Virus record (IMG/VR): IMGVR_UViG_2703718777_000022
Reading direction: 5' to 3' (one strand)
Origin: a virus
Taxonomy: Duplodnaviria; Heunggongvirae; Uroviricota; Caudoviricetes
Length of the DNA: 10,045 nucleotides
The position numbers and the translations under genes are program-made. The notes beneath the pieces are model-generated. The model had not been told where the DNA came from. It did no database searches and saw nothing but the letters and a program-made list of their open reading frames with translations. Below, piece by piece: positions 1 to 855 of the stretch; positions within the stretch are counted from its first letter, which is position 1; every line of letters starts with the position of its first letter.

Positions 1-855
1 CTCCAGGAAACCCGGGGCGGTTCAGAACAAAATGAGCAACTACAACTGTATGCTCTGGGTGCGCTCGAACAATTCAGCATGCTGTATGACTTTGAGACTG
101 TAAGATTATTTATTCACCAGCCAAGGCTCAACCACGTTTCAGAATGGTCGTTAACCGTACAGGAACTTCAGTCTTTCGGTGAACGGGCACAGAAGGCCGC
201 AACCAGTGCGATCCTTGTTCTCAATATTGCTGAATGCGAAGGCATTGAGACACTACCGCTGGAAAACTTCATACCTGGAGAAAAACAGTGCCGCTTCTGT
301 AAAGCAAAAGCTATTTGCACTGCCCAGAAAATGCAGCATTTACAAACAGCGGCCAGCGATTTTGAAGATCTGACAAAGCCTGTCAGCGAAATAATCACCA
401 ATGCCAGCGCACGTGTACCTCTGTTAACCATTGAGCAGCTTGCGGAGATCTATAGCCAGGCCGACTTTATTGAATCCTGGCTAAAGGCAGTACGGGACCG
501 GGTTCACAATGAACTCAATGCCGGACATCCAGTACCGGGGTTTAAACTGGTAACAGGAAAACAAGGTAACCGGGCCTGGAGTGATGAAGAGGCAGCTCGC
601 GCACTTCTGAAGGACCAGTTCAGGTACAAAACTGAAGAAGTATTCGACTTTAAACTTATTAGCCCCACAAAAGCCGAAAAACTTATCAAAAAGGCCAGTC
701 CGCGCCGTTGGTCAAAAGTCGAGGCACTGATAACACGAGCTGATGGTAAACCCACCGTCGTTCCCGAGTCAGACCCACGCCCCGCACTCAATATCAACCC
801 TGTAAATGATTTCGACGACGTATCCGACGATACGCTAACCGCAGACCTCATCTGA
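1..855 (+). CDS. C-terminal part of a phage PD-(D/E)XK-type nuclease (DUF2800/Cas4-like); 5' end lies upstream of the window
   Basis: Frame 1 is open from base 1 with no stop before the listed ATG at 79, so the 258-aa ORF is a fragment of a longer gene. It contains C-x2-C-x5-C (CRFCKAKAIC), the spacing seen in Fe-S nucleases of the Cas4/RecB clan. It sits directly upstream of a DUF2815-like SSB and a family A polymerase, the usual context for DUF2800. Stop TGA at 853-855. Family assignment is from memory, not a search. Confidence 0.5.
   Translation, partial: LQETRGGSEQNEQLQLYALGALEQFSMLYDFETVRLFIHQPRLNHVSEWSLTVQELQSFGERAQKAATSAILVLNIAECEGIETLPLENFIPGEKQCRFCKAKAICTAQKMQHLQTAASDFEDLTKPVSEIITNASARVPLLTIEQLAEIYSQADFIESWLKAVRDRVHNELNAGHPVPGFKLVTGKQGNRAWSDEEAARALLKDQFRYKTEEVFDFKLISPTKAEKLIKKASPRRWSKVEALITRADGKPTVVPESDPRPALNINPVNDFDDVSDDTLTADLI

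Follow-up and report, generated by a model that had tools for sequence, protein, structure and literature searches.

The window analyzed here (the whole stretch of 10,045 nucleotides) lies in a prophage that is integrated beside yfhL in E. coli, and from nt 23 to 10045 its DNA is 100% identical to an intact prophage of E. coli 2014C-3061 (WP_032314220.1). It opens with the end of an insertion sequence, which is followed by the 3' part of a DUF2800 nuclease gene and by the genes of a replication module. The following features were assigned:

1-24, + strand: right terminal inverted repeat (last 24 nt, sequence CTCCAGGAAACCCGGGGCGGTTCA) of an IS3-family element, IS629 in E. coli/Shigella
25-27, + strand: GAA, codon E158, the first gene-derived codon and probable 3-bp target-site duplication (corresponding to L001 9003-9005)
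25-855, + strand: 3' remnant of the prophage DUF2800 nuclease gene (codons 158-433 and stop), a pseudogene fragment judging from its sequence (Pfam DUF2800, E 2e-63)
31-51, + strand: N160 and Q162-x3-Y166 (NEQLQLY), the sole active-site-associated motif remaining in the fragment
289-318, + strand: C246-x2-C249-x5-C255 (CRFCKAKAIC), three C-terminal ligands of a putative four-Cys metal (Fe-S) 'staple'
319-804, + strand: predicted family-specific C-terminal alpha/beta domain, residues 256 to ~417 (from conservation and AlphaFold)
[quoted passage not shown]
871-1419, + strand: DUF2815 / Enc34-type gp2.5-like protein that binds and anneals ssDNA, conserved as the downstream partner (Pfam PF10991, E 1.3e-43)
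2072-4135, + strand: family A DNA polymerase (Pfam DNA_pol_A), encoded third in the duf2800-gp2.5-polA module

The gene downstream of the nuclease remnant belongs to PHROG 112 ('Gp2.5-like ssDNA binding protein and ssDNA annealing protein'), and the tail of its product, DDFDDISEGADAEALI, is encoded at nt 1369-1416. The order of DUF2800 gene, gp2.5-like gene, and PolA gene recurs in Corynebacterium, Staphylococcus, Bacteroides, Salmonella, and Burkholderia phages, and the duf2800-gp2.5-polA module has been described before (PMC8093625). The genes in the neighbourhood are those of prophage replication, regulation, lysis, and integration. Two convergent Arc genes are diverged paralogues, and a DNA inverted repeat between them was looked for and not found.

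The DUF2800 family and its cysteine motif

Codons 97-106 (nt 289-318) of frame +1 across nt 1-855, whose stop codon lies at 853-855, encode CRFCKAKAIC, a C-x2-C-x5-C motif with the spacing that an earlier note on this DNA had claimed. The motif is not a product of chance; when the 276 gene-derived residues were shuffled 200,000 times with their composition kept, it arose 50 times. It is followed by 178 residues after its last Cys, slightly fewer than the approximately 185 estimated in that note.

The same note had proposed an alignment to DUF2800, and the fragment matches DUF2800 (PF10926) with 215.2 bits (E 2e-63; gathering threshold 21 bits) over profile positions 147-368 of 368, the full-length domain (profile 1-368) not being present in one frame in the window copy. 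Intact orthologues comprise 433 aa. The intact orthologue scores 369.1 bits against DUF2800 and 40.9 bits against PDDEXK_1 (PF12705, threshold 22 bits) over residues 7-255, the end of the latter profile coinciding exactly with the third Cys of the triplet, and C255 is also the end point of the PADLOC Cas4 profile match. Window residues 158-255 reach 17.9 bits against PDDEXK_1, which is under the threshold. The protein is assigned to PHROG 69 ('exonuclease'), and examples of DUF2800 / PHROG 69 members are WP_032314220.1 (E. coli prophage), Bas14_0045 (B14T), and BcepNazgul gp71. The DUF2800 protein of phage vB_EcoM-606R2, an inducible intact prophage, is 99.1% identical. DUF2800 and PDDEXK_1 have been placed in one RecB-like group of prophage proteins by Steczkiewicz et al. 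(PMC3424549). The family amounts to 17,542 representative clusters (50% identity, E <= 1e-3) and is found in 1,765 phage records and in approximately 3.5% of deposited phage genomes. The motif is the mark of a common and already catalogued phage nuclease family, and as such an ordinary finding.

Conservation was assessed on 126 representatives whose identity to the reference sequence lies between 39 and 62%. C19, C249, and C255 were present in all of them (126/126 each) and C246 in 125/126, so that all four Cys occur together in 125/126 homologues; C64 and C228, on the other hand, are not conserved. The catalytic residues of the intact orthologue are D133, D146-x-K148 (D146-L-K148), and Q162-x3-Y166, of which D133, D146, K148, Q162, and Y166 are each invariant (126/126), and the accompanying N160 is kept in 125/126. 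The fourth Cys ligand and the D/E-x-K residues, which the earlier note had proposed to look for upstream, therefore exist in intact orthologues as C19 and as D133 and D146-L-K148, but both are absent from the window copy, where Q162-x3-Y166 is still encoded at nt 37-51. Like the rest of the family, the window copy has the remaining motifs and the C-terminal domain and is situated upstream of a gp2.5-like SSB and PolA; it differs from the family in being cut at codon 158 by IS629 and in lacking residues 1-157.

Fold and metal centre of the intact protein

The AlphaFold model of the full-length intact protein has a pLDDT of 92.8 and a pTM of 0.87. When it was compared with the PDB by Foldseek, the top matches were ACE1 (2.9e-6), LHK-Exo, AdnA, Cas4 SSO0001, type I-C Cas4, MGME1, RecE, and lambda Exo. 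Sequence alone gives weak matches to solved structures of the Cas4 type (E 0.007-0.035). Two other hits were rejected: TTM1 as a PDB relative in a single-sequence search was spurious, and tandem RNase A constructs at the top of the PDB profile search (E 0.0012) were chance matches in a linker region. In the profile alignment, all four Cys fall on the four Cys of AdnA and the last three on the C-terminal Cys triplet of ACE1, CRFCKAKAIC being aligned with CRYCPFTSIC (MaACE1) and CANCPVRSSC (AdnA). The counterparts of NEQLQLY are HAQLAMY in AdnA and RRQAHVY in ACE1. The nuclease domains of AdnA/AdnB, AddB, and RecB (PDDEXK_1) are fused to SF1 helicase motors, whereas the DUF2800 protein stands alone with its own C-terminal domain; the likeness lies in the four Cys and the catalytic motifs, which align with AdnA.

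Taking together the DUF2800 and PDDEXK_1 matches, the residues, and the Cas4-family fold, the description as an Fe-S-type nuclease other than canonical Cas4 holds by homology, and the intact protein would be a PD-(D/E)XK nuclease belonging to the 'iron staple' type of RecB, AddB, AdnA, and Cas4. C19 and C246-x2-C249-x5-C255 are predicted to clamp both ends of the nuclease domain around the metal centre, and D133, D146, and K148 (with E114 and H44) would form the Mg2+ active site, with Q162-x3-Y166 beside it.

The earlier note had read the motif as that of an Fe-S cluster PD-(D/E)XK nuclease. Its assignment to a nuclease family stands by homology, while the preference for Fe-S over Zn is drawn by analogy, according to which the metal centre is most likely a [4Fe-4S] cluster. 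AdnAB and Cas4 have been described as Fe-S 'iron staple' enzymes, and the structure of ACE1, the closest solved relative, contains an Fe4S4 cluster that is held by one N-terminal and three C-terminal Cys (PMC12094033). Cas4 and AddB share this one-plus-three Cys layout (PMC3466216). It is unlikely that the four Cys bind a structural Zn instead, which would leave the nuclease fold unchanged. A related four-Cys RecB-type DUF3799 nuclease (phage or bacterial; PDB 3L0A) was crystallised with Zn at the same position (PMC3466216), but the same paper cautions that Zn can be an artefact of over-expression, and, besides ACE1, AdnAB, AddAB, and Cas4 with their one-plus-three Cys pattern are described as Fe-S enzymes.

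With regard to its role, the nuclease would resect DNA ends in the 5'->3' direction and thereby yield ssDNA (both polarity and role are deduced), which the gp2.5-like protein would coat and anneal, feeding recombination-dependent replication. By analogy, the module most likely works like the two-component phage recombinases lambda Exo with Red-beta, RecE with RecT, and T7 gene 6 exonuclease with gp2.5, in which an exonuclease gene likewise adjoins the gene of an annealing protein. Lambda Exo and RecE are also among the weaker fold matches of the DUF2800 model. Differences are that the DUF2800 protein belongs to another nuclease clade than that of the lambda Exo/RecE systems and carries the four-Cys staple, and that its partner is a gp2.5-type OB-fold protein instead of a Red-beta/RecT annealase.

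The IS629 terminus and the state of the gene copy

The first 24 nucleotides of the window copy the terminus of IS629, an insertion sequence of 1.31 kb that is also called IS1203 or IS3411. Their identity to annotated IS629 ends is 24/24, and the terminal inverted repeat ending ...CCCGGGGCGGTTCA is present. In GenBank LC567828.1 the same end (...CGGGGCGGTTCA) carries the annotation 'insertion sequence:IS3 family IS629', along with a target duplication of 3 bp. E. coli ECMA0423 and Shigella flexneri contain multiple copies of the 22-mer at nt 1-22, and 82 of its 83 occurrences continue with CA and then with unrelated flanks. Since the 24-nt terminus is also common to IS3-family elements in other phyla and thus not exclusive to IS629, the element was named IS629 because the host is E. 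coli. A literature search with the terminus as a text string gave no match.

Among the complete E. coli genomes with a match (154-156), no alignment extends to the left of nt 23, and from nt 23 onward the window is 95-100% identical to nearly all of the 154-156 E. coli gene copies; similarity to the intact gene ends at nt 23-25 of the window. Contigs that encode the exact DUF2815 protein come solely from intact or IS1-bearing prophages. As nt 1-24 are the IS629 terminus, the first eight translated residues (LQETRGGS) are derived from the IS. They stand in place of the invariant D146-L-K148-x-G150, with which no alignment is possible. The element abuts codon E158, which is located within the intact gene L001:8532-9833, between the D-x-K and Q-x3-Y motifs, and is oriented so that its transposase genes read toward the nuclease fragment. 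The one IS629 copy read has an in-frame TAA 9 nt upstream of the position that matches the window start. By analogy with the IS629 annotation, GAA at nt 25-27 is the probable 3-bp target-site duplication, the left junction lying outside the window. What the earlier note had taken for a gene cut by the window edge is hence a gene interrupted by IS629.

The insertion at codon E158 splits the catalytic half and the fourth Cys from the fragment, whose protein shares 100% identity with residues 158-433 of WP_032314220.1 and lacks C19 as well as the catalytic D...D/E-x-K residues. Because of this interruption the copy cannot encode the nuclease, and its sequence identifies it as a non-functional pseudogene remnant. 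Overall, the locus is very probably best explained as the IS629-broken 3' remnant (codons 158-433) of a prophage-borne gene that encodes a DUF2800 nuclease of the iron-staple type. We infer that the 5' half of the gene lies beyond the IS, and an IS-mediated deletion or rearrangement, rather than a simple insertion, may have occurred at the site.

Three other explanations were weighed against this pseudogene. It is highly improbable that the nt 24/25 junction is an assembly or contig-end artefact with no real insertion behind it. The 40-nt junction gave no match in an exact search of genome, viral, and metagenome contig collections, nor did a guessed left junction in the searched collections. 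Moreover, contigs assembled from short reads frequently end at an IS copy or slightly within one, and the contig L002 begins 75 nt inside IS629. The join, however, lies exactly at the IS terminus (...GGTTCA), as real transposition predicts, and the interruption of E. coli prophage genes by IS629 is common.

It is similarly improbable that the 3' fragment still yields a product, whether initiated at ATG 79 or arising through read-through out of IS629; such a product would be a C-terminal domain on its own with the tail attached, and it could, for example, compete for the partner of the SSB tail. The earliest in-frame start codon in the fragment is the ATG at nt 79 (M176), from which an ORF of 258 codons persists; the IS629 transposase genes are directed toward it, and the C-terminal domain alone folds confidently in silico. 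On the other hand, no Shine-Dalgarno-like sequence precedes ATG 79, the product would begin within the nuclease domain and bear an orphan three-Cys segment, and no identical product to the truncated 258-aa ORF is on record. Finally, a gene that is intact in the source genome and carries a divergent nuclease allele in nt 1-24 is scarcely credible: the frame is open from nt 1, but nt 1-22 match 0 of the 154-156 E. coli copies, nearly all of which are 95-100% identical from nt 23 onward, the 24 nt reproduce the IS629 terminus exactly, and LQETRGGS replaces an invariant segment to which it is unalignable.

Comparison with Cas4, the C-terminal domain, and the acidic tail

The IS629-broken gene also has to be set apart from Cas4. 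Cas4 (SSO0001, PDB 4IC1; type I-C, PDB 8D3L) and ACE1 (PDB 9IAB/9IAC) are the best fold matches of the DUF2800 protein, with which they share the PD-(D/E)XK core and the N-terminal Cys plus C-x2-C-x5-C; in both, those Cys hold an Fe-S cluster. The DUF2800 protein differs from them by a sequence identity of 12-17%, by the lack of a CRISPR or Argonaute context, and by its continuation for 178 residues where the ACE1 chain stops a few residues past the Cys triplet. The earlier note was correct in stating that the long extension after the motif is unlike canonical Cas4, and this extension holds across the whole DUF2800 family. Pfam Cas_Cas4 (PF01930) gave no match at E <= 10. Judged in this way, the DUF2800 protein is not Cas4 proper. 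That it is nevertheless a true Cas4 acting on the acquisition of CRISPR spacers, comparable to the Cas4-like Campylobacter phage protein, can be practically dismissed: it shares the superfamily and the Cys pattern and has a weak match to the PADLOC Cas4 model (E 0.0039, 15.5 bits), but, apart from the missing Pfam match, the 20-kb neighbourhood contains no cas genes (cas1/cas2) or CRISPR array, the gene is consistently accompanied by those of a gp2.5-like SSB and PolA, and the additional C-terminal region of approximately 180 residues is absent from the matched Cas4 structures of approximately 200 residues.

Unlike in Cas4, the nuclease core would thus be followed by a conserved alpha/beta domain of approximately 150 residues and an acidic tail. 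The C-terminal domain has a pLDDT of 95-98 in the full-length AlphaFold model and of 90 when folded alone, and its conserved residues are K331, G335, R340, W342, S370-P371, D407, and R409. A fold search of the domain alone against the PDB gave no significant match (best E 0.94), and ribosomal proteins were rejected as relatives (E ~1, probability <= 0.08). DUF2800 is the sole Pfam match of the domain, and the only NCBIfam match, to flavodoxin, was below the threshold.

The tails of the nuclease and the SSB were compared in 17 clusters with <55% identity between clusters. The last two residues of the nuclease tail were identical to those of the cognate SSB 1.18 times on average, compared with 0.31 times for non-cognate SSBs (permutation p ~2e-5). 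As the nuclease tail resembles the SSB tail and co-varies with it, their sequences suggest a shared docking partner. In T7, the gp2.5 tail docks on the polymerase, and the shared dock could be the family A polymerase or the DNA-binding cleft of the SSB itself. We put forward, as a tentative proposal whose chances we rate slightly below even, that the part after the motif is an undescribed fold, that its tail imitates the tail of the phage's own gp2.5-like SSB and evolves along with it, and that nuclease and SSB alternate on one dock. No paper describing such a shared dock or tail mimicry was found in a limited literature search. The nuclease family itself is already known, and the link between the tails is one modest new lead.

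For annotation, the ORF is to be recorded as an IS629-disrupted DUF2800 pseudogene, whose first eight codons belong to the IS, and not as a truncated or novel Cas4-like gene. The wider interest lies in the family: DUF2800 is very large, its label is still that of 'unknown function', and one of its members, the DUF2800 protein of phage Bas14, was recently reported to trigger retron type IX, for which its D-x-K residues are required (bioRxiv 10.64898/2026.07.14.737667). The near-universal four-Cys staple, the folded domain after the motif, and the tail that tracks the SSB offer experimental handles on the duf2800-gp2.5-polA module. If the proposed alternation of nuclease and SSB is true, it would couple the resection of DNA ends to SSB loading and annealing.

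The window in its prophage context

The window is the replication, regulation and integration block of a prophage, and nt 23-10045 match the chromosome of E. coli 2014C-3061 at 100.0% identity, with 0 mismatches in 10,023 nt.

Genes of the window
1-855, plus strand: DUF2800 fragment
871-1419, plus strand: DUF2815 / Enc34-type SSB (the gp2.5-like protein)
1446-2045, minus strand: AT-rich gene, no function assigned
2072-4135, plus strand: family A DNA polymerase
4141-4911, plus strand: ANR-type regulator, DUF4406 and VRR-NUC genes
4908-5084, plus strand, and 5053-5382, minus strand: two convergent Arc-family genes
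5693-6541, plus strand: Rha
6585-7979, plus strand: SNF2 helicase
7976-8176, plus strand: HTH protein
8173-9576, minus strand: tyrosine integrase
from 9785, plus strand: chromosomal yfhL

2014C-3061 has an intact nuclease gene of 433 codons, whose product WP_032314220.1 is annotated as 'DUF2800 domain-containing protein'; residue numbers used here refer to this orthologue. In the window, no stop codon interrupts frame +1 of nt 1-855 between the first base and the TGA at 853-855, and the earlier note took the gene to be cut by the window edge. Instead, the terminus of IS629 (nt 1-24) abuts codon E158 (GAA, nt 25-27). The complete E. coli genomes carrying the gene (154-156) all align from nt 23 and never from nt 1 in megablast and blastn comparisons. 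When nt 1-22 were searched as a 22-mer in one genome per species, 79 stretches matched, and the genomes of E. coli ECMA0423 and Shigella flexneri each contained it many times. Directly after the 22-mer come CA and an unrelated flank in 82 of 83 occurrences, as expected of a mobile-element end. All Escherichia and Shigella copies listed have the same element sequence on the 5' side, identical or with a few bases different. Of 5,426 E. coli genomes, 4,262 contain this 1.31-kb element, where its annotation reads 'IS3 family transposase'; GenBank phage records label it 'insertion sequence:IS3 family IS629', with an annotated end at exactly ...CGGGGCGGTTCA and a 3-bp target duplication. Nt 1-24 therefore represent the right-hand end of IS629, and LQETRGGS, the first residues of the earlier translation, is IS-derived. 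Since the IS629 copy that was read carries an in-frame TAA 9 nt before the position matching the window start, and the first in-frame start codon of the fragment is the ATG at nt 79, the nuclease copy is a 3' pseudogene remnant. A simple insertion of IS629 into the nuclease gene is the most economical reading, although a deletion or an assembly join may have created the junction instead.

Exactly the same 24 nt, CTCCAGGAAACCCGGGGCGGTTCA, terminate further IS-like elements whose internal sequence differs (loci L004-L080). These lie, often approximately 110-140 nt from contig ends, in genomes of Actinomycetota, Acidobacteria, Alphaproteobacteria and other groups as well as in metagenome-assembled genomes. 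The 24-nt terminus is an IS3-family terminal repeat that is unusually well conserved across phyla.

Several further features of the prophage were observed. The AT-rich stretch at 1446-2045 (GC 31-37% versus 48-56% in the flanks) encodes, in opposite orientation to the flanking SSB and PolA genes, a 199-aa hydrophobic protein that is possibly membrane-associated and has no Pfam, PHROG or PADLOC match. At least 80% of nt 1-2100 was covered in only 13 of the 156 E. coli genomes carrying the module, and the partial matches listed in this comparison end at nt 1420. The gene looks like a moron and is possibly a superinfection-exclusion or defense gene. An IS1 copy breaks the same gene in other E. 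coli genomes (L082 and L084, 5074-5771; around window position 1900), so the prophage region has been struck by IS elements more than once. The 3' ends of the two Arc-family genes overlap and the first 14 residues of their products are identical (MSKRDDPQLRVRIP); their DNA has diverged, an inverted DNA repeat between them was looked for and not detected, and the pair may form a regulatory switch. The SNF2-type helicase best matches the DpdE, ZorD and DrmD helicase models of PADLOC (E down to 7e-13), which was rejected as a sign of a defense system because these matches reflect the common SNF2 core. Outside the window, a 300-aa protein is encoded directly 5' of the DUF2800 gene in the intact prophage (L001, 7627-8529; gap of 3 nt); it belongs to PHROG 6784, function unassigned, and has no Pfam or PADLOC match.

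The nuclease core and its cysteines

The cysteine motif reported in the earlier note is real: codons 97-106 of frame +1 (nt 289-318) read CRFCKAKAIC. C-x2-C-x5-C arose in 50 of 200,000 shuffles of the 276 gene-derived residues, which include four Cys, and is unlikely to result from composition alone; its conservation among homologues shows that it is not chance.

The fragment matches Pfam DUF2800 at E 2e-63 (profile positions 147-368) and the intact orthologue at E 3.4e-110 (residues 5-410). In the latter, residues 7-255 additionally match PDDEXK_1 (40.9 bits, cut-off 22), a profile that stops at the motif's third Cys, and PHROGs label the family 'exonuclease'. HMMER, run exhaustively against 1.84 billion representatives, gave 17,542 clusters with E <= 1e-3, of which essentially every one is full length. 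Of 50,697 phage records, 1,765 contain the gene by tblastn, with hosts in Proteobacteria, Firmicutes, Bacteroides and Actinobacteria. Homology thus supports the suggested DUF2800 membership and a predicted Cas4-like PD-(D/E)XK nuclease of the Fe-S type, an assignment already known from databases and literature (PMC3424549). The intact gene has both the fourth Cys (C19) and the D/ExK residues (D146-x-K148) to be looked for, and the window copy has neither.

Residue conservation among 126 representatives (39-62% identity to the reference sequence)
C19, C249, C255: 126/126
C246: 125/126
four Cys jointly: 125/126
H44, D133, D146, K148, G150, Q162, Y166: 126/126
E114: 125/126
C64, C228: not conserved

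By sequence, the layout of C19 plus C246/C249/C255 corresponds to that described for Cas4 and AddB, in which an Fe-S 'iron staple' is held by a single Cys preceding the nuclease core and three following it (PMC3466216), and likewise for ACE1 (PMC12094033). For a 90%-identical homologue, AlphaFold2 gave a confident model (pLDDT 92.8, pTM 0.87). Its best solved-structure matches are Fe4S4-containing ACE1 proteins (E 2.9e-6), and LHK-Exo, AdnA, Cas4 SSO0001, type I-C Cas4, MGME1, RecE and lambda exonuclease are also among the best. Profile-to-PDB alignments, which are weak (E 0.007-0.035), pair C19 with the N-terminal Cys of AdnA, D-x-K and Q-x3-Y with the corresponding motifs of AdnA and ACE1, and C-x2-C-x5-C with CANCPVRSSC (AdnA) and CRYCPFTSIC (ACE1). 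Cas4 proper was rejected, as the intact orthologue has no Cas_Cas4 match at E <= 10, it matches the PADLOC Cas4 model only weakly (E 0.0039), and no cas genes lie near the nuclease gene.

The C-terminal domain and the acidic tail

After the last Cys, 178 residues follow, rather than the approximately 185 first estimated. That this long stretch is unlike canonical Cas4 was correctly noted; it is a trait of the whole DUF2800 family and not a peculiarity of this locus. In the 126-sequence alignment residues 256 to ~410 are conserved, K331 being invariant and G335, R340, W342, S370-P371, D407, R409 and F420 occurring in at least 90% of sequences. The retron IX preprint terms this region 'disordered' in B14T, the DUF2800 protein of phage Bas14 (bioRxiv 10.64898/2026.07.14.737667), whereas in the enterobacterial protein it is predicted to fold confidently (pLDDT 95-98 in the full-length model, 90 when modeled alone). 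The isolated domain gave no significant PDB fold match (best E 0.94) and matched only DUF2800 in Pfam.

At its C-terminus the nuclease ends in the 16 residues NDFDDVSDDTLTADLI (nt 805-852), which resemble the final 16 residues of the neighboring SSB, DDFDDISEGADAEALI (nt 1369-1416); a similarly acidic tail is absent from all other prophage proteins. The Rha-family protein ends in ...YYTDLI (window 6516-6538), sharing its last three residues, DLI, with the end of the nuclease tail (..TADLI), which may be chance. The likeness between nuclease and SSB tails recurs in unrelated phages, with sequences differing from phage to phage, and the matching end pairs comprise LI/LI, LV/LV, LA/LA, MI/MI, EV/EV and GL/GL (loci L088-L175).

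Nuclease and SSB tails in three phages
Staphylococcus phi12: nuclease ..AEDDFDKL; SSB ..AEDDFDEL..DEDFL
Chi-like SAL_R1: nuclease ..AWDDEDDDEV; SSB ..AWDEDEDWEDEV
BcepNazgul: nuclease ..CFDDLTADDGL; SSB ..SFDDVSDGEE..NGGL

Both genes were taken from 83 loci and grouped into 17 clusters (nuclease identity <55% between clusters), and each nuclease terminus was compared with its own SSB terminus and with those of the other clusters. Identical residues at the last two positions averaged 1.18 for the cognate versus 0.31 for non-cognate SSBs, and anchored BLOSUM62 scores over the last four positions were 5.94 versus 0.92. The permutation p of 2e-5 to 6e-5 is approximate owing to residual non-independence between clusters; 30 or 38 looser clusters gave the same outcome. 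Common ancestry by itself would not be expected to bring a nuclease tail closer to the tail of its own SSB than to those of other phages. The acidic tail of T7 gp2.5 has been implicated in binding polymerase and helicase-primase, and it and ssDNA compete for the cleft of gp2.5 itself (both summarized in PMC5686142). By analogy, we hypothesize that nuclease tail and SSB tail share one docking site.

Proposed role of the intact module

The gene order duf2800, gp2.5-like gene, polA, noted earlier (PMC8093625), is conserved across phages of several phyla, and the gp2.5-like protein is an SSB and annealase according to PHROG 112. The nearest functional analogues (Cas4, the nuclease domains of AddB and AdnA, lambda Exo and RecE) are mostly 5'->3' end-resection enzymes, whereas ACE1, the best fold match, has been described as an ssDNA endonuclease. 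In the best-supported model, the intact nuclease and the gp2.5-like protein would act as an exonuclease-annealase pair, generating 3' ssDNA tails and putting them to use, which could feed recombination-dependent replication or concatemer formation. In the literature, functional data on DUF2800 proteins were found only for the triggering of retron IX, for which the D-x-K residues are needed (bioRxiv 10.64898/2026.07.14.737667).

The window copy is an IS629-broken pseudogene, and the motif, although real, marks a nuclease assignment that was already known. The lead worth keeping is the uncharacterized C-terminal domain of the family together with its SSB-mimicking, co-varying tail.
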